A DNA stretch of 27,280 nt from a virus: positions 1 to 27,280 of IMG/VR virus record IMGVR_UViG_3300030035_000142. One strand, given 5' to 3'. Positions within the stretch are counted from its first letter, which is position 1; each line of letters begins with the position of its first letter. Below are positions 1,986-23,745 of the stretch, piece after piece. Under the pieces are notes generated by a model. That model was not told the DNA's origin. It worked only from the letters and a program-made list of their open reading frames with translations, and did no database searches. Position numbers and translations under genes: made by a program.

Positions 1986-4130
1986 TTAAGCTGGTCCGTA
2001 GGGGTAGAAGGTGCCTCCGAAGACGGGTATCTGGATCATGCCCAGCGCGTACTGCGTCACCTGGTCGTCTTCGATGTCGGCTATCAGAAAGGAATAGTCG
2101 AAGTTGACACCCGGTTTTTCTTGGGCAAGCATGATAGGATAAACGGTCCCCGGTATGCCAGATACGTCCGCGCCCGTCAGTTTGGCGTCCTGGTCGAAGT
2201 GGACGTTGAGCCATACTTCCCCGCTGGTTTGGGGGATAGTCACCCACGAGGAACCGGAACCGCCCCCCTGCGGATATTTGCCGAGCAGCGAGCCGTTCAG
2301 ATAGAGCGCGCCGGGCTTCATCTGCGCCCCGGTGATGGCTCCCTCCGTATCTTTCTGCAAGCGCACCTGAAAGCCGTATTCCGGCGCGGGCGTGGATTCT
2401 CCCGTGGATTTGGTGATGTGCTGGCTGATGGTGGGGGATTCCGGCTTGGGGTCAAAGCCGTATTCCGTCGATTCCGGCGCCCCCTGCATGTTTTCCAGCG
2501 TGGAAGAAATGTTAGAAACGGAATTAATTTCATTGAGCGAAAGCAAATCTTCAACCCCAAGTTGATTTGGCGCGCCGTAGGACAGGGAAATCGCGTTGGT
2601 CTGCAGGTCGCGCGAAACGGTTTGAATCATGGTGTTGATGTTCTGCCACTCTGGGTTGCCTCCCAGCAGCGAGACGCGCCGGCCCATGTATTGCCGCGTC
2701 TGCGCTTCTCCCAGCGCGACAAAGGAAATAGAGCCGTCCCAGGGCAATTCCTGCATGGATTCCCATACCGTTTTGGCAATGTCCCCATAGGGCACTCCTT
2801 CCGACGGTTCCGGCGATTCCCCTTCTTCCGGGCCGTTGGAGGGCTGTTCCCCGTTGTAGATGCCGTCAATGGGGTAGCTCGCGTAGGGGCGGTCCATGGT
2901 GACCAGATCCACCGAGAATTCTTCCCAGAAGCAGGGCACGCCTTGCAGGGTCCCCACATTCTTGAATTTCTCCCTCCACTTGGCCGGGGCGCTTTCCGGG
3001 ATGGCAAGACGCTGCTTGACGGTGGCGTTGCACCATTGCGGGCGGATGGATTTGGTATGAATTTGCCCGTCCGTCAGTTCATAGCCTGTGGCGGCGGTGT
3101 TGTAGCCTCGCGGCTTGTCTTCCTCCGTTCCGTCCCAGGGCTTCCCGGTGATGGTCGGATCCTGGTCATAGACGGCGATTGCTCCTACATCTTTCATCCA
3201 CGGGAAATGATGTTTCCAGAAACTGTTGATCATGTCGTTCTGGTCAATCCTGGTCCCCGTCACTTTCATGCGCTGGTAAGACAGGCTGCCGGCCCTGGTG
3301 CCCTGCACCGGCTGCGGATCTTCTACCGGCTCCCCCGTAGAACTGTATTTGGAGTAGTAGAAGTCTACTGACGTTCGGTAAACAATGGAGTGCGGCAAGG
3401 TCGGGTCCCCGTCTTCCGGGTATTTGGACAGGTAGGAGACGCGGTAGCCGTTGCTGCCGGTGGTTTCCGCGACGATAGCCACGCAGGGCGGTACGAGGTC
3501 GCCCCGGGGGACCAGGGAAACATCCATAGACTTGACCGTCGCCGTCGGCTGCAAGGGAAGCGCGATGGGCGTCAGGGCGTCATAGTCCGTGATGATGAGC
3601 TTGGGGCGCGCGCCGCTGTAGTCGTAGTAGGAAACCATGCGGGGCGACCAGCGGCGGATGGATTGAAGGAGGCTGCTCAGCGTATCGCAGGAGGCGTTCC
3701 ACGGAATCAGCATCTTGTCGTCGCTGATACGCAGCTCGTAGTCCGCCGGGTGGTGTTTGGCGAGGTTCAGCACCCGGGAGAGTGCGGAGGCAATGCTTAT
3801 CTTGGGAATGATGCCGCCCCCTCCGCTGACTTTATTCCACATGGAAAAGACCGGCTTCCATTCGGAATCCAGCGCAAAGCAGTTGTCCAGCCAATACCAG
3901 GGATCGGAAAAGACGATTTTCCACGCACGGGAAGAGCCGCTGTAGGTCTTTTCGATGCTGGAAACGAGGCCGGAAAGAATGGTGTTCCCGTTTTGGGAGA
4001 TGGAGACAGTATCGAACTGTTGGAAGGGTAAGACCTCCCCCAGCGTTCGCACGGGATAAACCGCGGTGATGGCGGAGGAGGAAAAGCTTTGCTGGTCGTG
4101 GGTCAGGCTCGACGGCTTGAGGCCCAGCAA
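1986..4130 (-). CDS. Large distal tail protein (714 aa from TTG; possible AGG start at 4157)
   Basis: Long ORF directly downstream of the tape-measure region, with no recognisable enzymatic motif. The function call rests on position and size. The first canonical start is TTG 4130. The frame is open back to TAA 4181-4179 with an in-frame AGG at 4157-4155. Confidence 0.55.
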   Translation of the reverse strand: MLGLKPSSLTHDQQSFSSSAITAVYPVRTLGEVLPFQQFDTVSISQNGNTILSGLVSSIEKTYSGSSRAWKIVFSDPWYWLDNCFALDSEWKPVFSMWNKVSGGGGIIPKISIASALSRVLNLAKHHPADYELRISDDKMLIPWNASCDTLSSLLQSIRRWSPRMVSYYDYSGARPKLIITDYDALTPIALPLQPTATVKSMDVSLVPRGDLVPPCVAIVAETTGSNGYRVSYLSKYPEDGDPTLPHSIVYRTSVDFYYSKYSSTGEPVEDPQPVQGTRAGSLSYQRMKVTGTRIDQNDMINSFWKHHFPWMKDVGAIAVYDQDPTITGKPWDGTEEDKPRGYNTAATGYELTDGQIHTKSIRPQWCNATVKQRLAIPESAPAKWREKFKNVGTLQGVPCFWEEFSVDLVTMDRPYASYPIDGIYNGEQPSNGPEEGESPEPSEGVPYGDIAKTVWESMQELPWDGSISFVALGEAQTRQYMGRRVSLLGGNPEWQNINTMIQTVSRDLQTNAISLSYGAPNQLGVEDLLSLNEINSVSNISSTLENMQGAPESTEYGFDPKPESPTISQHITKSTGESTPAPEYGFQVRLQKDTEGAITGAQMKPGALYLNGSLLGKYPQGGGSGSSWVTIPQTSGEVWLNVHFDQDAKLTGADVSGIPGTVYPIMLAQEKPGVNFDYSFLIADIEDDQVTQYALGMIQIPVFGGTFYPYGPA

Positions 4131-4235
4131 GTCATTGATGGTGATGTCGTGGTTCCTGCTGCTTGTAAAATGGTTATGTTATGGCTTGATGTTACCGTAT
4201 CTTGCCTGGTTCGGCAATGCGTTTACCTGTCCTAG

Positions 4236-10662: not shown

Positions 10663-11067
10663 TTATTTAATAGTGAAATGCTTGAAAAACGCCACCGCGG
10701 CGGGGGCGGTAATGACGAACTCCGGGTAGTCGCGGTCCGTAAAAATCCTGCGCCCGCCCTGTGGATTGACGGCTTCCACGGCCAGATACACCGCCTCCAC
10801 TCCCACAATGGGGTCATCCTCATTGACAGGATCCGGGTAATACCAATCCTGTGTTGCCCACACCTGGACGGCCTGCCAATCCTCACCCAATCCCACCAGC
10901 GCGGCCACTACGGCGGCCATGGCCGGGGTCTGGTTCGCCGGAATCTCGTCCTGCGTATAGCGGTCTATGCGGGTGTACCCTTCCTCGTCCTGGTAAATGG
11001 CCGCCAGGCCGAATTCATCCCATTGACCGGGTTTCGGGAACTGTATTTGTATCTCGGAATTATTCAT
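10663..11067 (-). CDS. Hypothetical acidic protein downstream of the fibre gene (fibre-assembly candidate by position only)
   Basis: 134-aa ORF. Its ATG overlaps the fibre stop (ATGA). No motif recognised. Confidence 0.45.
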
Positions 11068-13004
11068 GATTCTATCGGCACGTTAATATCTTCAAAAGCG
11101 GCGGTTGCCTCGGATTCAACGGCATTCGTTCCTATTGCGTTCAACCCGTAAAAGAGGGGGTTCACATTGCCCGGCTGGTAGTAGGCATATTCTCCGGGCC
11201 CCGCATAAACGGAAGCCGTGCCGCTGGTGGTGTTGATCACATCCGTCACCCACCTGGAAATGCCGACGCCGGTCTCAAAATTGGAGACGCCCCGGCAGGT
11301 GGCGATCTTGAACAGGTTGTTGGTCTGTGCCCCCGTGACCAGCAGCCAGAGGCCTCCCAGGTTTTCATAAACGCTGCTGTTGGCAACCGTCTGCTGCTGG
11401 TAAATAATCTTGCACACCGTCCACGGGACGGGCTCGTTTTGCGTCGCCGGGATAAAGCTGGTCGTCGTCTTGACCTGCCATCCATCGGCGGACGTCAGCG
11501 CATAAATTTCACGCACGCGCACCGTATAGCCGTTGCGCGCCGTATCGCGCACGTTGTCAAAGGTGATGTCCAGAATCTCCCCGGAATTAAATGCCAGGTC
11601 ATTGCCCGGAATAATCGTGTAGGAGTCGGTGGTAAGGTCTGTCCTGATTGTTTTCGCCCCCCGTCCGATGCCCATCGTTATCTTCGCCGCGGCCGTGGCC
11701 CGCCAGACAAATGAAAAGCCGGCCCAGGAAGAATAATTCCATTGGGAACTGGGGCCTTCAAAAGGGGCCTGAATAGTCGTGTGAGCGCCCGCGGAAATTC
11801 CTATGCGGGCCATCTGGTAGGGAACCGTTTTAGTCACCGTTGCCGTGCCGGTAGTTGTCAGCGTGTCCGTATTCAGGAAAGCCGCCGCCGTATAAGCATT
11901 GGCTGCGCCTCCCATGCCCGCGGCATACAGGCGGTTGACGCCGGATTCATTGGTCGGCGCTCCCACGGCCAGCGGGATGTTGACGCCTCCATTGGCGTTG
12001 ATGGCGCTTGAAAACGTGGATGTCCCCGCGCAGTTGAAGCTGGCGCCCTGGCTGATATTCAGGATTCCGGTCTCTACCATGAATGTCCCTCTCAGCCATC
12101 CGCCCGACCGAAGATCGACCGACTGGTAAAACCGGGTGATCCCGTAAATCTGGTTCAGCGTGCCGGCGCTTCCGCTGCCGTCCGGGTTGTTGACCACCAG
12201 AGGCCCGTTCACGGTAGCTGATTCGGCTGTCAGGGCTCCCCCGATATTCACATCGCCAACGTTGGATGTCAGAGTACCAGGATCTCCCTTTTCCCCTTGC
12301 GGCCCCTGGGGGCCTGCCGGACCTTCCGGCCCCTGGGGGCCCTCCGGGCCTTGAGGCCCCGCCGGTCCTGTATCTCCCTTCGGTCCCTGCTCCCCGGTTT
12401 CGCCCTGCGGCCCGCGTTCCCCGGTTTCGCCGCGTGGACCTTGCGGCCCTTCGGGTCCGGTTTCACCCCGTTCACCCTGCGGGCCTGACGGTCCCTGAGG
12501 ACCAACATCCCCGCGGGGAATCGTGAAATTGAGCAGATAGGATCCTGATTCAGTTCCCTTGACGGCTTCCGCGTTGGCGGGCGTCCCCGGTTCCCCGGTG
12601 GTGACCTGACCCACGGACAGATTAAAATTCTCGGCGTACTTTTTGGCCTGCTCCGCGTACCAGGCGGCGCTGGACGCGTTATCAAGCATGATTTGCACGC
12701 AGCCGCTTCCTTCCGGCAGCTGCACGACGACCGCGCCCGCCACGGCCTGCTGTTCGTCCGGCAAGTCCGGCGTCACCCGGCCCGAAGAAACAAAGCATCC
12801 GTAAAGGAACGGGCTTTCCTCGTTTCCGTCGTCCATGAAGACGTCATAGGACCACATGCCCGCAGGCACCGAAGCCCAGGAAATTACGCCATTGCCCTCG
12901 TCATCGCGTGAAAAGCCGAACTCCGTCACGCCCGTCTTGAGACGGACAGCGCCGCGCAGGGTGACGCCGCTCATATCGACGGGATCGCCCTGAAAATCCA
13001 CCAC
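11064..13004 (-). CDS. Collagen-like repeat tail fibre protein (646 aa from GTG; possible AGG start at 13070)
   Basis: About 26 uninterrupted G-X-Y triplets ([76 protein letters not shown]), flanked by a beta-rich N-domain and a ~400-aa C-terminal domain. Confidence 0.8.
12276..12512 (-). repeat. Collagen triple-helix (G-X-Y)n coding repeat
   Basis: Read directly from the translation of residues ~165-243 of the fibre ORF. Confidence 0.9.
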
Positions 13005-13072
13005 GCGGACGACCAGGGACTGGTTCAGCCCTGTGACGGTCCGGATATCGTATTTACCTGCCTGCTGCCTGG

Positions 13073-13118: not shown

Positions 13119-13730
13119 TCAGGAACCCGGCACCGGCGTCACGTCCTGCACATTGGAAGGCGTGAAATTGTAGTCGCCGCGGTAATCCATTTCGAACTCG
13201 AACTGGGGTGAAGCGATCGCCGTGGTGTGTTCGGGGTCCTGCAGGAGGCGCAAATCTCCGTGCGCCACGCCCGTCAAGTACACCGTCCCCACGTCGTTCT
13301 GATACCAGAAACGGATATGTCCGGAAATTTTATTATCCCCGCCATGGCCGACGGTGGTCGATTCCTCGCCGTTGGCGGGAGCCGCCCCCAGGGCAAACGC
13401 CAGCTGGAAGTATTCGGGCGACATATCCGGCGTGGTGAAAGTCATCCGCTTGCCGGTCGTCGTGTTCTTGCGCTGCTGCCGGTAGCCAAGATTGCCTCCG
13501 TAAAAGCGCGTCACTTCCCCCTCGACCTGCGTGGCAACGGACTGGAACGCGCCCAGCAGCCCGAAACTCACCCAAGGCGCTTCGGGCCCGGCTGTCGGAT
13601 CGGCCGGAGGATTGGCGGGAGGTTCGGGATATTGGCCGGGGCCGGTAACGTAAGAGGCTCCCTCGTCCTCGGTCACCTTGATGCCGTCGGGGAGGAAAAT
13701 AGCCAGAACGCCGGTAATCTGCGGCGTCAC
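13119..13730 (-). CDS. Putative major tail (tube) protein (203 aa from GTG; possible AGG start at 13769)
   Basis: The function call rests on size and position after the head-completion genes. The frame is open back to the upstream gene's TAA. AGG GCT ACT at 13769 would give MATTYDPIFTNRNV... Confidence 0.45.
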   Translation of the reverse strand: MTPQITGVLAIFLPDGIKVTEDEGASYVTGPGQYPEPPANPPADPTAGPEAPWVSFGLLGAFQSVATQVEGEVTRFYGGNLGYRQQRKNTTTGKRMTFTTPDMSPEYFQLAFALGAAPANGEESTTVGHGGDNKISGHIRFWYQNDVGTVYLTGVAHGDLRLLQDPEHTTAIASPQFEFEMDYRGDYNFTPSNVQDVTPVPGS

Positions 13731-13784
13731 GTTGCGGTTGGTAAAGATAGGATCGTATGTAGTAGCCCTGATGCTTGAAAAAAG

Positions 13785-17036: not shown

Positions 17037-17777
17037 TTAATCGGCGGAGGCCGTCGCGTCGATGCGGACGATGGCGCCGGGGTTGGTCAGCTTGGTCAGC
17101 GAGTAGACGCGGTTGGTGACGAGCGTCAAGGCCAGCGTCGGCTTGTATTCGGTGATGACTTCGCGGCGAAGCTGGCCGGAAAGACCGAAGGTTTTGACGG
17201 CGGAGGCGTCGAACTGCGTCGGGGAATCTTCCTTGTACAGGACATAGACTTCGTTTTCCATGATGGTTTTCGCGTCGCCGGAAGCGTCGCGGTACGGCAT
17301 GGAGGCGATGTAAATATCCCGGATGGGCCGGATCAGAGCCATGCGAAGCAGGTCTTCGTTGAACAGGCCGACGCTGTTGAAGGAAACCACCTGGCGCGCG
17401 AGCGTGTTGGAGCGAAGCAGCTGCCACGCGTTGATGCCGAAGACAATCGTGTTCGGCATGTGTCCGGTTGCGGCGTTGATGGACAGGATCGCCTGGTCCA
17501 GATCCGCCAACGGGTTTTTCTGCTGGTTGGCCCAGTCACCCATCCCGGAAGCGGCCGGAAGCTGGCTCATCAGAAGCTTGGCGCGTTCGTATTCGTACGA
17601 CGTCACAAACTGGGATTCGATGAGTTTGTATTCCGCCAGGGTGATGGCCTGCGCCTTTTCCCGGTTGACGCCCAGCAAGGCGTCAGGGATGGGCAGCGTC
17701 AAGCCGTAGCCCTGAAGGGTGTCGGTTTCGTTTCTTCCGCGCAGGACGGTCTGGCGGGGAGGTTCGCCCGGTCCCAC
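17037..17777 (-). CDS. Major capsid protein, lambda gpE-like (coordinates from the first canonical GTG; true N-terminus probably at AGG 17963)
   Basis: PLADLDQAILSINAATGHMPNTIVFGINAWQLLRSN parallels lambda gpE PTDDIEAYALNASGVVNIIVFDPKGWALFRSF. At 246 aa it is too short for this family. The frame is open for 72 more codons upstream, and these read like capsid N-terminus. Confidence 0.75.
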   Translation of the reverse strand: MGPGEPPRQTVLRGRNETDTLQGYGLTLPIPDALLGVNREKAQAITLAEYKLIESQFVTSYEYERAKLLMSQLPAASGMGDWANQQKNPLADLDQAILSINAATGHMPNTIVFGINAWQLLRSNTLARQVVSFNSVGLFNEDLLRMALIRPIRDIYIASMPYRDASGDAKTIMENEVYVLYKEDSPTQFDASAVKTFGLSGQLRREVITEYKPTLALTLVTNRVYSLTKLTNPGAIVRIDATASAD

Positions 17778-17997
17778 CTGGATGGGCTGGACGGTGAAGG
17801 CCGATTCCGTGTCCCAGACCTTGTACTGGAAATTCAGGTCATAGACCGGGACGATCGGAGCGATGCGGCTGATGATGGAGTTCTCTTCTGTGTTCCCGGA
17901 CCCCGCGGAATAGGAGGTCAGGACATCGGTGAACTGAACGGCGGAGCAAAATGGAGTAGCCCTTGTTCTTGGTCTTTCTGTTGGTTGGGGTTAATAG

Positions 17998-18447: not shown

Positions 18448-19569
18448 TTATCGGTTGGCGGAGACGATGAAGCCTTCTTCGGTCGCTTTCTGGTAGGCGT
18501 CATAGCGCTTCATGCCGTCCTTGATCAGTTCGTTCACACGGTTGTTGAATCCTTCAATGGATTCCTTCTTGCGGAACGGATCAGGGGGATTCAGCGTCAC
18601 GCGGCGGTTCAGAGGCGTCCTTTGCGGAAGCTTCTTCTGCTCCGGCTGCTCCTGTTTCTGTGGGGCCGCCTGGCGGTTGAGCGCACGGATAAAGGCGTTC
18701 AGCGCGGCGGGGCTTTCCCGGAGAGAGTTTTTCAGCTCTTCCCGGCGTTCTTCCGTAAATTCCTCGCGTTCTTCCTCGTCCAGCGCGTTTTCGTACGTGC
18801 TGACGGCGTCGTCCACTTCGGCGTTCACGTGGTCTTTCTCGCGCTTTTCCAGCGAGAGCAGTTCATCAAGTCGTCCGAGGATCGCCCTGCTCATATCGTC
18901 GGTGCCGTCAAATTCGACATCCAGCTTGTCAAGCAGGGAATCGAACAGGGCCCGCTGGGCCTTGTCCATTTCCTTGGACGGATATTCTCTATCGTCGTTG
19001 TCCATATTGGTGTTCTGGGTTATTTCCCCCTCTTCGCGGGGCTTTTGTGGTTTGGTGTCGCCCCCGGCCTCGTCGGAGGCGGGGGAAGTCTGTCGGTTGA
19101 CCAGCGGCCGCTTTCCCTTGATGCGGGGTCGGTTGGTCAGGGCAAAGCCGGTCAGGCGCGACGGTCGGTAAACGCCGTCCGTAAAGGTCATGCCTTCGCC
19201 GTATTCCGTAGAAGATTGCGTATATTCTTTGTCCTCGAGCATCTTCAGGCCGCGGGGAGTCCATTCAATGAAGCCGTAGAGTTCCAGCGTACCGGAAGGG
19301 TCTCGGTAGGTGTCCAGCCTCTTGAGCCATCCGAGAGCCCGCGTATCGCGGGAAAGGTCGTGGCTCAGGTGGTCGCCGTCGATGAGCATGCCCGGCCCGT
19401 CAAAGGTGCGGGCGTTGAAGTCGTCCACCATGTCCCGGATCGCCTGCTCGTCGATGCGCAGCACGGCGGGTCCTTCACCGTAGTCGACGTCATGGTCTCC
19501 GCTTTTCTCGATGTGATACCAGCCGTTGGCGGGTCGGGACAGGTCATTGATTTGTTTCGTACTGATCAT
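18448..19569 (-). CDS. Mu gpI-like prohead protease / scaffold fusion
   Basis: The N-domain GDHLSHDLSRDTRALGWLKRLD...LELYGFIEWTPRGLKMLEDKEYTQSSTEY...RLTGFALTNRPRIKG matches the Mu-like prophage I protein pattern. The C-terminal half is an acidic coiled coil (scaffold-like). Confidence 0.7.
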   Translation of the reverse strand: MISTKQINDLSRPANGWYHIEKSGDHDVDYGEGPAVLRIDEQAIRDMVDDFNARTFDGPGMLIDGDHLSHDLSRDTRALGWLKRLDTYRDPSGTLELYGFIEWTPRGLKMLEDKEYTQSSTEYGEGMTFTDGVYRPSRLTGFALTNRPRIKGKRPLVNRQTSPASDEAGGDTKPQKPREEGEITQNTNMDNDDREYPSKEMDKAQRALFDSLLDKLDVEFDGTDDMSRAILGRLDELLSLEKREKDHVNAEVDDAVSTYENALDEEEREEFTEERREELKNSLRESPAALNAFIRALNRQAAPQKQEQPEQKKLPQRTPLNRRVTLNPPDPFRKKESIEGFNNRVNELIKDGMKRYDAYQKATEEGFIVSANR

Positions 19570-20680
19570 CGGTAAATCCTTTCATGAGTCCGGCGTAAAT
19601 CATTTGCTGAAGCTGCTCGTAGGCGTCGGGCGGAATGAGGGAGGCTCCCGACTCCCTGTTGACTGCCGCCGCCGTCGGCACAGGCTCCCTCGTGTCCTCG
19701 ATCGACATGCCGATCTTTTCTTCGATTTCGGTTTTCTCCGGACGGACGCCTCCGTCCGCAAGGGCGGCGATTTCCTCGGCCTTCTGCAATGGCGTCTGGA
19801 CGGTGTCAAAGGTGATGTGGAGGCGGGCCAGCGGTTCGCCGTCTCCCAATATAAGCGGGCTGATGGCGGTGTTGAACGCTTCCGCCACTTTGGAGCAGAC
19901 GGCGGATACCACCGCATTCCAGCTGTCCGTATGGGCGGACCCGGCCAGCGTGCCTGATCCTGATTCGTTCAGGACCGTCAGGGTTCCGGCCATCACAAAA
20001 CGCACCTGGTCCTTGTCGGCCATGTTGATGCGCGAGAGAAAATAGTTTTCGTTGATGTTGGACGCCTTGAGCGGTTCCGCCTTGCAGTCAGGAGGCAGCA
20101 CGATAGAGGCGCCTGATTTAAGCTGTTCGCAGGCCCGTTCCAGCGCGTCCATGACGGCGGGACTCGCGTCCTTGGGGGCGGTGATGATGACCGGGGCGCT
20201 TCCGTAGCGGTCCATGTGGTTGTCCCACGTGATTTTTGCGTGGTTGCGCTCAAAAGAAGCGCGGGCAGCCGGGAACAGGATGGGATACTGGTGTTCCATC
20301 ACGACGAGCGTTTCGTCTTCCACGCTTTCCCCGGTGTCGACGCCGATATAGCACTGTGGGTTGAACTGCCACTCGTTCAACACTCCCGGCCTCACCCAAT
20401 AGCGCTGTGGGATGAATTCAAAGCGGCGGCCCCAGGCGTCCTCAATGTATTGGAGGTGGGCGTAACCGTAGAACATGGCGGAGGCCAGCTGCCCAAAGGC
20501 CTGTTGAAGTCCGGTGACGGAGTGATAGAATTCTTCCAGCGCGTTCTGCTGACGCTGGGCTTCCGGGCTGTCGTCCGCGGCGTCAATCTTCCAGCCCTGC
20601 ATGGAGACGCTTTCAATGAGGCGGGAGTAGAGCATTCCCAGCAGCCCGTCCGAGTAGATGACCTCGTCCCAGATGAGCAT
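19544..20680 (-). CDS. Portal protein, Mu gp29 / DUF935-like (coordinates from the first ATG; true N-terminus probably at AGG 20908)
   Basis: 378 aa from the ATG is short for this family. The conserved block ...ADLQTLIDARNEARRGAFARQ|MLIWDEVIYSDGLLGMLYSRL spans the ATG. The frame is open upstream to within the tRNA gene and has no ATG/GTG/TTG. Confidence 0.8.
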   Translation of the reverse strand: MLIWDEVIYSDGLLGMLYSRLIESVSMQGWKIDAADDSPEAQRQQNALEEFYHSVTGLQQAFGQLASAMFYGYAHLQYIEDAWGRRFEFIPQRYWVRPGVLNEWQFNPQCYIGVDTGESVEDETLVVMEHQYPILFPAARASFERNHAKITWDNHMDRYGSAPVIITAPKDASPAVMDALERACEQLKSGASIVLPPDCKAEPLKASNINENYFLSRINMADKDQVRFVMAGTLTVLNESGSGTLAGSAHTDSWNAVVSAVCSKVAEAFNTAISPLILGDGEPLARLHITFDTVQTPLQKAEEIAALADGGVRPEKTEIEEKIGMSIEDTREPVPTAAAVNRESGASLIPPDAYEQLQQMIYAGLMKGFTDDQYETNQ

Positions 20681-20928
20681 TTGGCGGGCAAAGGCTCCCC
20701 GCCGCGCTTCGTTCCGGGCGTCAATCAGGGTTTGCAGGTCGGCTCCCTGTAACGGATCCCAATATTCGAACCATTGGGGCCTGCCTGGCTTGCGGCTTTG
20801 TTCCGTCAGGGCTCGCCGGGTGAGATCCGTTTCAAGTTCCTTGATTCTGGTCTCCTGTTGGGCGACCAGCTTCGGGGCGTTGAGGATATTTCTTAATGCG
20901 TTAAACCTGCGGCGAAAGAAAAAAATGG

Positions 20929-21002
20929 TGGTTGCAGGGGGGGGAATTGGACCCCCTACTCGGGCACAGGAAACCCGCGTGATAACGTTTCACCACCCTG
21001 CG
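20929..21002 (-). tRNA. tRNA, anticodon CCU (AGG-reading), with an initiator-like acceptor stem and a non-canonical D/T loop
   Basis: Manual cloverleaf: CGCAGGG UG GUGA-AACGUUA-UCAC G CGGGU-UUCCUGU-GCCCG AGUA GGGGG-UCCAAUU-CCCCC CCCUGCA A CCA. All stems pair (one U.G), U33 is present, position 37 is a purine and CCA is encoded. Position 1:72 is a C x A mismatch. Confidence 0.6.
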
Positions 21003-21018
21003 ATTGTTTACATATCGT

Positions 21019-21047
21019 CATATATTGATATATTGATATATTGTCAA
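21019..21047 (-). promoter_or_regulatory. Near-consensus sigma70-type promoter directly upstream of the tRNA
   Basis: The minus strand reads TTGACA (21047-21042), a 17-nt spacer, then TATATG (21024-21019), about 17 nt before tRNA position 1. It starts 2 nt after the terL stop codon. Confidence 0.4.
21021..21044. repeat. 3 x 8-nt tandem repeat TATATTGA / TATATTGA / TATATTGT
   Basis: Read directly from the + strand. It fills the spacer and -10 region of the putative tRNA promoter. Confidence 0.85.
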
Positions 21048-21049
21048 CC

Positions 21050-22357
21050 CTAATATCTCCCGTAAGCGCGTTTTGATGACACGGGCCGGGCGTACCAGGC
21101 TCCCAGCGTCCGGGCCAGTCCGCTGTGCCGGCGCGCGTGCCAGGCCATGACGAGGGCGTCGGCGCGGTCGGGAGAACGGACGCCCCGTTTCGCCATGTCT
21201 TCCTTGCTTTCGATTTTGACGCGGCCGATCGCGTCGGTTTGGAGCCGGGGCGCTACCAGCTGCTCAATCGTGTCCTCGTCAATGTCGAGGATGAGTTCCT
21301 TTTCTTCGATGGCTCGGGCCAGGGCCCGCCACGCCTGGGCGCGGAGGTTGACAAAGGCCTGCGTATCGTCTGCCGGGAAACCGCCCCGGTAGGAGTGCAC
21401 CGGGAAGCCCTCGGCGCGGAAGTCGTCAATGATGGGTAGTCCAAGGCCGTCTCCGTCCGCGTAAATGCGGTCGGCGGGGATGCCGAGTTCGGACGCCCTG
21501 CGGCGGAACCGTCCGCGCGCTCCTACGGTGTCCGGGTCCGACCAGTGGTCGGCGATGAAGAATCGGTTGCCCTGCCCGGCCGCGAAGACGTTTTCGTCGC
21601 CTCCGGCCGCGAAGTCGAAGCCGCCGCAGGTCTCCCCGGTGTCCAGAAAGGGAGGCGGGTTGTTGACCAGATCCATGAGGGCGCGCCGGGGAATGACGGA
21701 CTGACCGTCGAGGTCCGTGAATTCGCCGAGGATGGCGGAGCGGTAGAAGGAGGACTGCTCGCCGTATTCTTTTTTCAGGCGCTCGGCCTTGCCCGGGTCA
21801 TTGATCTCAATGTGGGGGCAATCCTCGTATTTGACGCGGATCTTGTAGTAGAGGGATGAATTTTTGTGGAAGCAGTCGTAGAAGGTGCCGGAATCGGCCC
21901 CAGGTGACGAGGTAATGAACGCGTGGAAGAGCGTGCAGCGGGAAACGGCGGTGAAGATGGAGTCCGGGATGGTTTTAGCCTCGTCGAGGACGTAAAAGAC
22001 GGGGTCCACGTCGGGCGAGATTTTCGGGTGCCATCCTTCCGCGCGGCCGGCGTTGTCGGTCGAGAAGCCCACGGCAAAGCCTCCCTCCGGCGTGCGAATC
22101 TCGGTTTTGTTGAATGTCCAGCCGTCAAAGAAAGGGTTGTCCATGTAGCGGCGGAGCGCGGGAAAGAGCTGCTTTTCCACCTGCATCCACGACGACGACG
22201 TAACCGGCACCTGACCCCGCGGGAAGCAGGTAAGGAAGTACAGGATGGCCGGAGCGATGCAGTTGCTCGTCTTGCCGGATCCGTTGGGAGCAACCAGAGC
22301 CACGCTTTTCCCTCCCAGGGTCAGCTTGCCGAGGGACAACGCCTTGATGGCTTCCAC
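21050..22357 (-). CDS. terL: Terminase large subunit (coordinates from the first canonical GTG; true N-terminus probably at AGG 22423)
   Basis: Walker A VAPNGSGKT, Walker B-like FYVLDEAK and a C-terminal nuclease-type acidic motif (SPDRADALVMA). The typical TerL N-terminal block FFLRHVLRLDPYPWQ lies upstream of the GTG. Confidence 0.9.
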   Translation of the reverse strand: MEAIKALSLGKLTLGGKSVALVAPNGSGKTSNCIAPAILYFLTCFPRGQVPVTSSSWMQVEKQLFPALRRYMDNPFFDGWTFNKTEIRTPEGGFAVGFSTDNAGRAEGWHPKISPDVDPVFYVLDEAKTIPDSIFTAVSRCTLFHAFITSSPGADSGTFYDCFHKNSSLYYKIRVKYEDCPHIEINDPGKAERLKKEYGEQSSFYRSAILGEFTDLDGQSVIPRRALMDLVNNPPPFLDTGETCGGFDFAAGGDENVFAAGQGNRFFIADHWSDPDTVGARGRFRRRASELGIPADRIYADGDGLGLPIIDDFRAEGFPVHSYRGGFPADDTQAFVNLRAQAWRALARAIEEKELILDIDEDTIEQLVAPRLQTDAIGRVKIESKEDMAKRGVRSPDRADALVMAWHARRHSGLARTLGAWYARPVSSKRAYGRY

Positions 22358-22429
22358 CTGCCAGGGATAGGGATCCAGGCGGAGGACATGGCGGAGGAAG
22401 AAGCTGACGGGGAGGCGTGTCCTGGTCTG

Positions 22430-22996
22430 TTAAGCGTGGAGTTTGCCGGCGATGGTTTCCAGCGCGGTTTTCTCGTCTTCCTGCAGCTGGGCCAGCTGCT
22501 CGGGGTCCAGGGTGATTTTCCGTTCCAGCGGCGCGCCGGGAACGCCGGCGACATCCTGACGGACCCGGTCGCCGAATTTTTCCGGCGCGAATCGGGCGGC
22601 GACTTTCAGCCGGGTTTCAATGGCGAGCTTCTTCGCGGCGACGGAGGCGGAGCCGCATTCCGGGTCCAAGGCGACTTTCGCGGCTTCGTCGGCCAGCTCC
22701 TGACAGGCGTCAATCATAGCTTCCGACTGCGCTTCCCGCGCGCGTTGAATGATTTTACAAAACTCTTCCCGCTCATGTCTCCATCTCCAGACAGTTAAAA
22801 CATCCGGCATGTGGTCATCGGAGCAGATGGATTTCATGGTTTCCCCGTTGGCAAGACGGGTGGCTATCTCGGCGGCCAGTTCCTCGGTGTAGAGGCTCGG
22901 CCGCCCCGGTTTTCTTTTGGTGGTAGGTTTCTTTTTCCTTCCGGGACGATAAGATTTTTTTAGTAGCGCGTCAAAACAAGATTTTTTCTCTTGCAT
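22430..22996 (-). CDS. terS: Terminase small subunit
   Basis: I start at ATG 22996 (MQEKKSCF...). GRPSLYTEELAAEIATRLANGETMKSICSDDHMPDVLTVWRWRHEREEFCKIIQRAREAQSEAM matches the widespread HTH-type TerS N-domain. The 270-aa long form is antisense to the neighbouring + gene and looks hydrophobic and junk-like. Confidence 0.7.
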   Translation of the reverse strand: MQEKKSCFDALLKKSYRPGRKKKPTTKRKPGRPSLYTEELAAEIATRLANGETMKSICSDDHMPDVLTVWRWRHEREEFCKIIQRAREAQSEAMIDACQELADEAAKVALDPECGSASVAAKKLAIETRLKVAARFAPEKFGDRVRQDVAGVPGAPLERKITLDPEQLAQLQEDEKTALETIAGKLHA

Positions 22997-23376: not shown

Positions 23377-23745
23377 ATGACTAAAAACGAATTAACAGAA
23401 ATTCTCAAACTGCACGAAATGTGGCTGAACGAGGAAGAAGGCGGCGCTCAGGCCAAATTTGAAGACCTCGACCTCAGGGGGCTCGACTTTAGGGGTGCTA
23501 ACTTAATCAAGGCTGACTTTAAGGACGCCGACTGTTCCGGAGTTGATTTCACAGGGGCCGACTTGAGATGTGCCGATTTCACCGGGGCCAATCTAACCGG
23601 GACCGATTTCTCCGGGTGCAATCTGAAATGGGCCAATTTTTACAAGGCCAATCTAACCGGAGCCAGATTTAACGGGGCTATCCTGGAATGCGCCGACTTT
23701 AGATGGGCCCGCGGGATTGTCGATCTGACCGTAGGGAAAGCTTAA
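23377..23745 (+). CDS. Pentapeptide-repeat protein
   Basis: About 18 consecutive A(D/N)LXX-type pentapeptides (DLRGLDFRGANLIKADFKDADCSGVDFTGADLRCADFTGANLTGTDFSGCNLKWANFYKANLTGARFNGAILECADF). Confidence 0.85.
   Translation: MTKNELTEILKLHEMWLNEEEGGAQAKFEDLDLRGLDFRGANLIKADFKDADCSGVDFTGADLRCADFTGANLTGTDFSGCNLKWANFYKANLTGARFNGAILECADFRWARGIVDLTVGKA

Follow-up and report, generated by a model that had tools for sequence, protein, structure and literature searches.

The subject of this study is a stretch of viral DNA 27,280 nucleotides (nt) long, positions 1 to 27,280 of the IMG/VR virus record IMGVR_UViG_3300030035_000142. This whole stretch is called the window, and its positions serve as coordinates throughout. 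TerS, terL, a tRNA gene and the late genes are all located on the minus strand. The DNA is that of an Akkermansia prophage, and its TerL protein is 99.6% identical to that of Akkermansia phage DTMo-2021a. We deal here with the start of terL and of five further late genes, all of which have the codon AGG where homologs have a canonical start, and with the neighbouring tRNA, whose anticodon CCU is complementary to AGG.

The junction between TerS and terL

On the minus strand, the TerS stop codon TAA (22432..22430) is followed in the same frame by 24 sense codons (22429..22358: CAG ACC AGG ACA CGC CTC CCC GTC AGC TTC TTC CTC CGC CAT GTC CTC CGC CTG GAT CCC TAT CCC TGG CAG) and then by GTG (22357..22355). 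Because 0/24 of these codons are ATG, GTG or TTG, the automatic open reading frame (ORF) of terL begins at GTG 22357 and codes for 435 amino acids (aa). To this point the sequence-only reading of the junction, which had listed the same codons and named the same GTG as the first canonical start in the terL frame, matches the sequence exactly. Its central claim, that the conserved TerL N-terminus lies upstream of this GTG, also agrees with the homologs. When the extended protein is aligned to the PHROG terminase profile (phrog_2, terminase large subunit, E = 8.6e-26), the alignment starts 7 residues upstream of V(22357). The TerL homologs (n = 775) are mostly 445-470 aa long. Those with 43-75% identity have their methionine upstream of the GTG position, and the alignment runs through the stretch; homologs that begin at the GTG, with no similarity before it, are thus not what is found. 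Examples are P0002 (75% identity, N-terminus MKIPAAWFLREVLKIDPYPWQ) and P0003 (68%, N-terminus MSKPYFPVSLFFREVLKIEPYPWQ), both of which align to TRLPVSFFLRHVLRLDPYPWQ of the window. In an alignment of 11 sequences reaching down to 43% identity, residues F9, L14, Y19, W21 and Q22 (counted from AGG) are invariant, and all five precede the GTG, which is residue 23. The Walker A motif NGSGKT and the WQ located about 20 residues before it are invariant in the TerL alignment as well. A PDB sequence search with TerL gave matches to the terminase nuclease domain only, none of them touching the N-terminal motif.

The junction was further compared in 13 distinct haplotypes from 54 loci, all on independent contigs. 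Variation in codons 5-20 is nearly all synonymous; across the stretch, 16 alternative codons are synonymous and 9 non-synonymous, seven of the latter falling in codons 2-4. The AGG at 22423..22421, which the sequence-only reading had singled out as the third codon after the TAA, is kept in 13/13 haplotypes and coincides with the probable start site, while the 5-6 nt that precede it are hypervariable (CCCGTC, CAGACC, ACATC, CCAATC, TACATC, CCGAGC, TACCGC, CCCGC), with only the final C constant. Two haplotypes have a spacer of 5 nt (TAG ACATC AGG and TAA CCCGC AGG). In these the TerS stop is out of the terL frame and the AGG is retained; the corresponding TerS proteins end in ...ETIAGKLNP and ...ETIAGKLHP, in a frame other than that of terL. 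The in-frame position of the TAA, correctly described for the window, is therefore incidental, as it is lost in these relatives. The earlier translation of all 24 codons as protein, beginning with QT, holds from the AGG onward; codons 1-2 (CAG ACC, 22429..22424) are hypervariable non-coding spacer.

Homologs using ATG have starts that project at most 1-2 codons from the terL AGG. The terL start of the relative L005 projects within 2 codons of it, and in two other related loci, L003 (a TGATG overlap) and L054 (ATT ATG AGA CTC CCG), the ATG stands one codon downstream of the AGG site. Judged by these comparisons, terL is a gene that begins at AGG 22423..22421, six bases past the TerS stop, and not at GTG 22357.

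Other codons of the stretch were tried as starts and rejected. CTG at codon 18 and CTC/ATC at codon 6 are near-cognate candidates, but codon 6 varies between CTC, CTT, ATC and TTA and the AGG is invariant; the attractive ATC of L001 at codon 6, located 5 nt after AGGA, was dropped for the same variability. The TTG called as the start of P0001 (codon 10) is one of four synonymous leucine codons (CTT, TTG, CTC, CTG).

The CCU tRNA and five further AGG genes

The only tRNA that ARAGORN finds in the window lies 47 nt past the terL stop and is labelled tRNA-Arg(cct). Its sequence is CGCAGGG UG GUGA AACGUUA UCAC G CGGGU UUCCUGU GCCCG AGUA GGGGG UCCAAUU CCCCC CCCUGCA ACCA, and its 1:72 pair is marked as non-canonical in the Rfam tRNA match. 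By the rules established in Escherichia coli, a tRNA is formylated and kept away from EF-Tu through a C1xA72 mismatch, G2:C71, C3:G70 and A73. The window tRNA has all of them, together with an encoded CCA. Related phages offer 17 distinct variants for comparison. In 17/17 of these, C1 and A72 are conserved and do not pair; C3:G70, A73 and CCA are likewise present in 17/17, and G2:C71 is present in 16/17 (G2.U71 in L020). No variant departs from the anticodon CCU. Pairing across the cloverleaf reaches 99.7%. Covariation is seen at positions 4-7 and in the anticodon and T stems, and 9/20 pairs show compensatory double changes, a level that 0/500 shuffles reach. All three G:C pairs of the anticodon stem (29:41, 30:40, 31:39) occur in 13/17 variants. 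G30:C40 is invariant, A29:U41 is found in two variants, and U31.G39, a paired change that keeps the helix, is common to the window tRNA and the L009 group only; many phage initiators with anticodon CAT likewise have two of the three G:C pairs. The D loop is AACGGUA in the common variants and AACGUUA in the window, with U at position 20.

When viral contigs were scanned for this acceptor stem with any anticodon allowed, 42 distinct tRNAs with anticodon CAT came out; the stem is therefore an initiator stem. Though built as an initiator, the tRNA is not a tRNA-fMet, because its anticodon is CCU and not CAU. Nor does it resemble an elongator tRNA-Arg(CCU) in anything except the anticodon, since it has neither a Watson-Crick 1:72 pair nor A20. 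Between the terL stop and the tRNA (21003-21049, minus strand) lies an AT-rich sequence, GGTTGACAATATATCAATATATCAATATATGACGATATGTAAACAAT, with a tandem ATATCAAT repeat and the arrangement TTGACA-N17-TATATG; it is conserved in L001 and looks promoter-like by eye.

Several late genes were flagged by a scan for long open frames devoid of canonical starts, and their starts were projected from two syntenic relatives that lack the tRNA, L005 (a 37.8-kb contig) and L297. In five genes, the ATG or TTG of the tRNA-less relatives projects exactly onto an in-frame AGG. Wherever the alignment reaches the N-terminus, the remaining late genes show an ATG no more than one codon away from the projected start. 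As AGG is rare in this phage (29/5949 sense codons, 4.9 per 1000), the chance of five exact coincidences is about 1e-11.

The portal frame is open from the tRNA to ATG 20680 without any canonical start, and the TTG of L005 falls on AGG 20908. For the major head protein, the ATG of L005 falls on AGG 17963, and the protein lengths are 308 and 307 aa; a start at GTG 17777, the first canonical one, would cut 62 conserved residues, and the phrog_1005 alignment begins with residue 13 at profile position 14. The 216-aa gene begins AGG GCT ACT ACA (13769) where L005 and L297 have ATG GCA ACT ACT, and the AGG is present in all related loci that cover the gene. In the tail fiber gene, whose product contains collagen-like repeats, the ATG of both relatives falls on AGG 13070. 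The 723-aa gene reads AGG AAC CAC GAC ATC (4157) against ATG ACA CAC GAC ATA in L297. Its homolog P0137 (54% identity) has the N-terminus MTHDITINDLL, starting with ATG in the tRNA-less L297, and the context upstream of the gene resembles that of the 216-aa gene. PHROG names for the AGG genes are terminase, portal, major head and tail fiber, and two genes are without a known family. Coordinates are collected in Table 1.

Table 1. Features of the window connected with the putative AGG starts
Feature	Position	Strand	Evidence
TerS, ATG start 22996, stop TAA 22430..22432	22430..22996	-	Pfam PF20901 Sf6_terminase, E = 2.5e-29; phrog_1482
Non-coding 6-nt spacer CAGACC, TerS stop to AGG	22424..22429	-	sequence and length vary (5 or 6 nt)
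Putative terL start codon AGG, third codon after TerS TAA	22421..22423	-	13/13 haplotypes; projection of homolog starts
TerL N-terminus, 21 codons (TRLPVSFFLRHVLRLDPYPWQ) before GTG 22357	22358..22420	-	invariant residues; synonymous variation
terL as redefined, 457 aa and stop	21050..22423	-	phrog_2; 775 homologs
Initiator-type tRNA, anticodon CCU	20929..21002	-	ARAGORN; Rfam 47.4 bits; covariation in 17 variants; 42 CAT acceptor-stem matches
Portal, putative start AGG 20906..20908, 20 nt after tRNA	19544..20908	-	L005 projection; phrog_113
Major head, putative start AGG 17961..17963	17037..17963	-	L005 projection; L054 ATG at identical site; phrog_1005
216-aa virion-module protein, putative start AGG 13767..13769	13119..13769	-	L005 and L297 projection
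Tail fiber, putative start AGG 13068..13070	11064..13070	-	L005 and L297 projection; PHROG tail fiber families
723-aa tail-region protein, putative start AGG 4155..4157	1986..4157	-	L297 projection (P0137)

Related phages and unrelated lineages

Altogether 38 tRNA-bearing loci were compared, the window included; most of them had been found by a D-arm pattern. The same genes have AGG and the same other genes have ATG, with the portal AGG present in 38/38. The start sites contain AGG and never another arginine codon; the bases just before it are hypervariable, whereas the codons after it evolve under purifying selection. L054 has the tRNA but uses ATG for capsid and terL, and in L003, which also has the tRNA, the portal gene starts with AGG and terL with ATG. 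The capsid start of L054 (ATCA ATG GCT AAT CTA TTT) may be set against that of L006 (AACA AGG GCT AAT CTA TTT). From these mixed starts, the pairing of portal and tRNA looks older, with terL converted later in the window lineage.

A second sample of relatives was chosen by TerL alone and is thus unbiased as to the tRNA. At TerL identity of at least 89%, nearly every locus has the CCU tRNA directly after terL; the only exception, L163, ends within terL, so that the tRNA site is outside the locus. At identity of 46% or less, no locus of this sample has a CCU tRNA, metagenome-assembled genomes of Luteolibacter and other Akkermansia included. L005, with TerL identity of 68%, has neither the tRNA nor AGG starts. 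The AGG arrangement recurs in Akkermansia phage DTMo-2021a, whose record was deposited as complete. Two more distant loci, L193 (4042-4119) and L194 (6115-6192), whose TerL is about 43% identical, contain a tRNA-Met(CAU) with A1xA72 about 570 nt downstream of terL; such a CAU initiator after terL may represent the ancestral state that gave rise to the CCU tRNA.

Comparable tRNAs occur in phages of other lineages. The unrelated L268 (IMGVR_UViG_3300045988_159907, 30% GC) carries a CCU tRNA with a tRNA-fMet-like body and the loop CUCCUAA, at 514-590 in reverse-complement coordinates. At least six of its structural genes show a strong Shine-Dalgarno motif, a spacer of 6-10 nt and an in-frame AGG opening an ORF right after the previous stop (AGG at 615, 2499, 7649, 9481, 9909 and 10323; for example AAGGAGaatgataat AGG and AGGAGGTaaaactt AGG), and when its portal, major head and tail completion proteins are read from their AGG, the PHROG alignments begin at residue 2. 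Five distinct initiator-type tRNAs (C1xA72, A73) have the anticodon CUU (L222, L226, L279, L281, L285). In three of these loci (L222, L226, L285), a Shine-Dalgarno motif is followed by AAG right after a stop. The AAG gene of L222 (7469, plus strand) codes for a portal protein of 489 aa (phrog_533), and the ORF of L226 (490 codons) has nearly the same N-terminus and length; these CUU loci may represent an AAG-start system. For comparison, a strict Shine-Dalgarno-based test for enrichment of any of the 64 codons at start sites was applied, with 518 kb of loci bearing CAT initiators as the control; there, AGG was found at 2/335 and AAG at 5/335 comparable sites. The short loci L228, L275 and L287 have CCU initiator-type tRNAs, and no clear AGG starts were found in the parts examined.

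L214, whose TerL is 64% identical to that of the window, has an initiator-type tRNA after terL (2035-2110) with an 8-nt loop, AUCCCUUA, and the anticodon CCC or CCCU. Its start-less genes have GGT in terL (594), GGG in the capsid gene (5039) and A GGG in the portal gene (around 2131), at or near the projected starts. This is suggestive of GGG/GGT starts matched to a CCC(U) tRNA in this single locus; no second tRNA of the L214 type was found in the viral or metagenome collections scanned.

The base preceding the start codon (-1) was also compared with tRNA position 37 in the window, L003, L268, L222, L226, L285 and L214. The Akkermansia phage has G37 and C at -1 in 5/6 genes, L268 has A37 and T in 5/6, the CUU group has U37 and A in 3/3, and L003 has U37 and A. 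Across lineages, complementarity is seen in 4/5 tRNA types. A four-pair codon-anticodon helix has been reported for E. coli tRNA-fMet (PMC10018350). As a side observation, these figures are suggestive of a 37/-1 pairing that would extend the helix to four pairs. Covariation of the two positions within a lineage was considered and rejected, as tRNAs of the L009 group have A37 yet C at -1.

Probable initiation at AGG by a dedicated tRNA

We consider it highly probable that six late genes (terL, portal, major head, 216-aa, tail fiber and 723-aa) start with AGG and that this codon is read by the initiator-type CCU tRNA of the phage. Comparative genomics shows where the start lies, that it is conserved and occurs together with the tRNA, and that this tRNA has initiator-type features. 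Concerning expression, charging, formylation and P-site use of the tRNA, we infer the following course of events. The tRNA would be transcribed from the late region. It would be aminoacylated and probably also formylated, because it keeps C1xA72, G2:C71, C3:G70 and A73; by the E. coli rules, the 1x72 mismatch should bar it from elongation. It would then bind the ribosomal P site, where CCU would pair with AGG, as the six AGG start sites and an engineered precedent suggest. Engineered E. coli initiator tRNAs have been compared in 12 anticodon/start-codon pairs; in every strain the highest expression came from CCU/AGG, and CUU/AAG worked as well (bioRxiv 10.64898/2026.04.16.719103). The remaining late genes would use ATG. 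The AGG starts would result in the N-termini X-ATPFCSAVQFTDVLTSYSAGSGNTEENSIISR (capsid), X-TRLPVSFFLR (TerL) and X-FNALR (portal), where X is the initiating residue. About the purpose one can only speculate. A translational lock, making the key virion proteins dependent on an initiator that the phage supplies, seems likely; a device for timing their synthesis and a linkage that ties the structural module to its own tRNA are also conceivable.

Several observations weigh against this interpretation. The D-stem pair A11:U24 of E. coli tRNA-fMet is absent and replaced by U11:A24 in 17/17 variants, and many variants have C55 in the T loop. C35 and U36 favour ArgRS, but the arginine identity base A20 is missing (U20), and formyltransferase handles basic aminoacyl groups poorly. 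The window tRNA is itself a singleton variant, with no G19 in the D loop (G19 to U) and with U.G at pair 31:39, and no other copy of its exact sequence turned up in the viral and JGI metagenome contigs scanned; because it is a singleton, this copy in the window prophage could be impaired, and it might be sub-functional. A promoter scan called no minus-strand promoter before the tRNA, TTGACA-N17-TATATG included. No Shine-Dalgarno motif precedes the AGG starts of the Akkermansia phage, although none precedes its ATG starts either. The inducible YL44 prophages of the literature are distant relatives only. Finally, the tRNA and its client genes share a transcriptional region, which makes any selective benefit speculative.

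Among the alternatives, the one that survives best, though improbable, is that AGG is read weakly as a near-cognate start by the host initiator tRNA-fMet and that the neighbouring tRNA is an ordinary elongator tRNA-Arg(CCU) serving a rare codon. AGG differs from AUG in one position, and work cited in a preprint ascribes to the native initiator tRNA a low-level promiscuous initiation on many codons, AGG among them (bioRxiv 10.64898/2026.04.16.719103). The ARAGORN label agrees with an elongator, and phage tRNAs are often explained by codon supplementation. However, elongators need a 1:72 pair for EF-Tu, and in the CCU tRNA the C1xA72 mismatch is conserved under selection; the acceptor stem is the initiator stem common to the 42 CAT tRNAs, and A20 is absent. 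Because the phage has only 29 internal AGG codons, there is little need for an elongator tRNA-Arg(CCU). The native initiator tRNA on AGG is rejected by IF3 (PMC6868393), and such suppression is a poor fit to major capsid and portal genes. Moreover, the tRNA-less relatives have no AGG starts at all.

It is very unlikely that GTG 22357 is the true start, with the conservation upstream being a relic, or that the starts were lost in a defective prophage or through an assembly error. The GTG is indeed the first canonical start, gene callers gave short models in many assemblies (448 aa in P0001, 429 aa in P0007), and the singleton nature of the window tRNA would agree with decay. On the other hand, a product begun at the GTG would lose the five invariant residues, including those of the WQ motif some 20 residues before Walker A; the 13 haplotypes from 54 independent contigs place the upstream stretch under purifying selection; and the same codon at the homologous start site of six genes is beyond what decay or sequencing error produces. 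The same arrangement in the deposited complete genome of DTMo-2021a speaks likewise.

Still less credible is a TerS-TerL fusion formed by readthrough of the TAA, which the sequence-only reading had named as an outcome contrary to its own proposal, or reinitiation independent of any start codon. The TAA of the window does stand in the terL frame and is followed by C, a weak termination context, and the distance of 6 nt from the TerS stop to the AGG is typical of translational coupling. Readthrough as a general mechanism is nevertheless excluded by the haplotypes with 5-nt spacers, in which the TerS stop is out of frame while the AGG and the TerL N-terminus are kept and the spacer is hypervariable. 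The window contains no suppressor tRNA, and the other five AGG genes have no in-frame gene upstream; the portal gene, for example, follows the tRNA. The weakest alternative, initiation at the out-of-frame ATG that exists inside the stretch (CC ATG TCC, 22389..22387) and a programmed frameshift into the terL frame, has a negligible probability: the shift would be needed within about 4 codons to keep LDPYPWQ, there is no slippery site, PVSFFLRH upstream of the ATG is conserved as protein, and the other five genes would be left unexplained.

The proposed initiation from AGG by a dedicated tRNA has its closest counterparts in the laboratory. Varshney and RajBhandary reportedly used an amber initiator tRNA as an engineered orthogonal initiator in E. 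coli. The engineered i-tRNA(CCU)/AGG and i-tRNA(CUU)/AAG pairs follow the same design as the phage system: the scaffold is that of tRNA-fMet, with its 1x72 mismatch, formylation determinants and G:C pairs in the anticodon stem, while the anticodon is altered and matched to a complementary non-AUG start (bioRxiv 10.64898/2026.04.16.719103). In contrast to these constructs, the phage system is natural and prophage-encoded, has co-evolved with six client genes and is conserved across dozens of metagenomic contigs, and its tRNA body is divergent (short D loop, U11:A24, often C55). The phage initiator tRNAs-fMet (CAU), 42 of them in viral contigs and some downstream of terL in L193 and L194, have the identical acceptor stem CGCAGGG...CCCUGCA-ACCA, but they read AUG, GUG and UUG as the host initiator does and reassign no start, whereas the window tRNA has CCU.

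Reassignment of TAG or TGA is known in crAss-like, Lak and other gut phages. Such recoding of stop codons by phage suppressor tRNAs (PMC10879173) is similar in that a phage tRNA alters the meaning of a codon, mainly in late or structural genes, and in that gene callers misannotate the result. It differs in that a stop is there read as sense in elongation, while here the sense codon AGG would be read as a start in initiation. The window genes themselves contain no in-frame stops, the only tRNA has the anticodon CCU, and the TerS TAA in front of terL is a genuine stop. Bacteria, too, have functional genes that start with none of ATG, GTG and TTG: the AUU start of infC is read by the normal initiator tRNA, and the Streptomyces gene sigR starts with GTC (PMC5472188). 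Weak initiation serves in these genes for regulation through IF3. Both are single regulatory genes with no dedicated tRNA, whereas the phage has six abundant virion genes with one codon and a dedicated tRNA of matching anticodon.

Taking the lineages together, we think it rather likely that several unrelated phages run natural orthogonal initiation, in which initiator-type tRNAs with an anticodon changed from CAU to CCU, CUU or CCC(U) would reassign AGG, AAG or GGG/GGU as starts of late virion genes (portal, capsid, terminase, tail), possibly with a fourth pair (37/-1) in the helix; the effect would be a translational lock controlled by the phage. To our knowledge, CAU is the anticodon of every natural initiator tRNA described to date, and it is this tRNA that also reads non-AUG starts. 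Our search of open-access papers and preprints turned up neither a natural initiator-type tRNA with an anticodon other than CAU nor phage genes starting with AGG, only engineered non-AUG initiators and recoding by suppressor tRNAs; within this literature, a natural alternative start-codon system is apparently new. If true, it would be the first natural case of start-codon reassignment, and control of late genes through the identity of the initiator tRNA would be the start-codon counterpart of stop-codon recoding in phages. It would also offer a natural system for studying the initiating amino acid and acceptance by IF2, IF3 and formyltransferase. Synthetic biology would gain evolved orthogonal initiator/start-codon pairs, and nature appears to use CCU/AGG, the best of the engineered pairs.

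Gene callers systematically truncate or mis-start such genes, and pipelines for phage annotation will have to take such tRNAs into account. In this phage family, the errors of the public gene calls are systematic (L001; P0001, P0004, P0007, P0008; P0121-P0131). In terL, the start is miscalled after the WQ motif or at the synonymous leucine codon TTG, the latter in P0001, which stands for 967 sequences. For the portal gene of L001 (2781-4229), the called start is a GTG that lies within the tRNA gene; the 723-aa protein is shortened by 9 residues, capsids lose about 60 residues, and some cluster representatives have frameshifted tails. Between the genes for packaging and those for replication lies an island of low GC (44%), which contains, on the opposite strand (23377-23745, plus), a gene for a pentapeptide-repeat protein (ANLIKADFKDADCSGVDFTGADLRCADFTGANLTG...), which could be a moron or an anti-defence gene.

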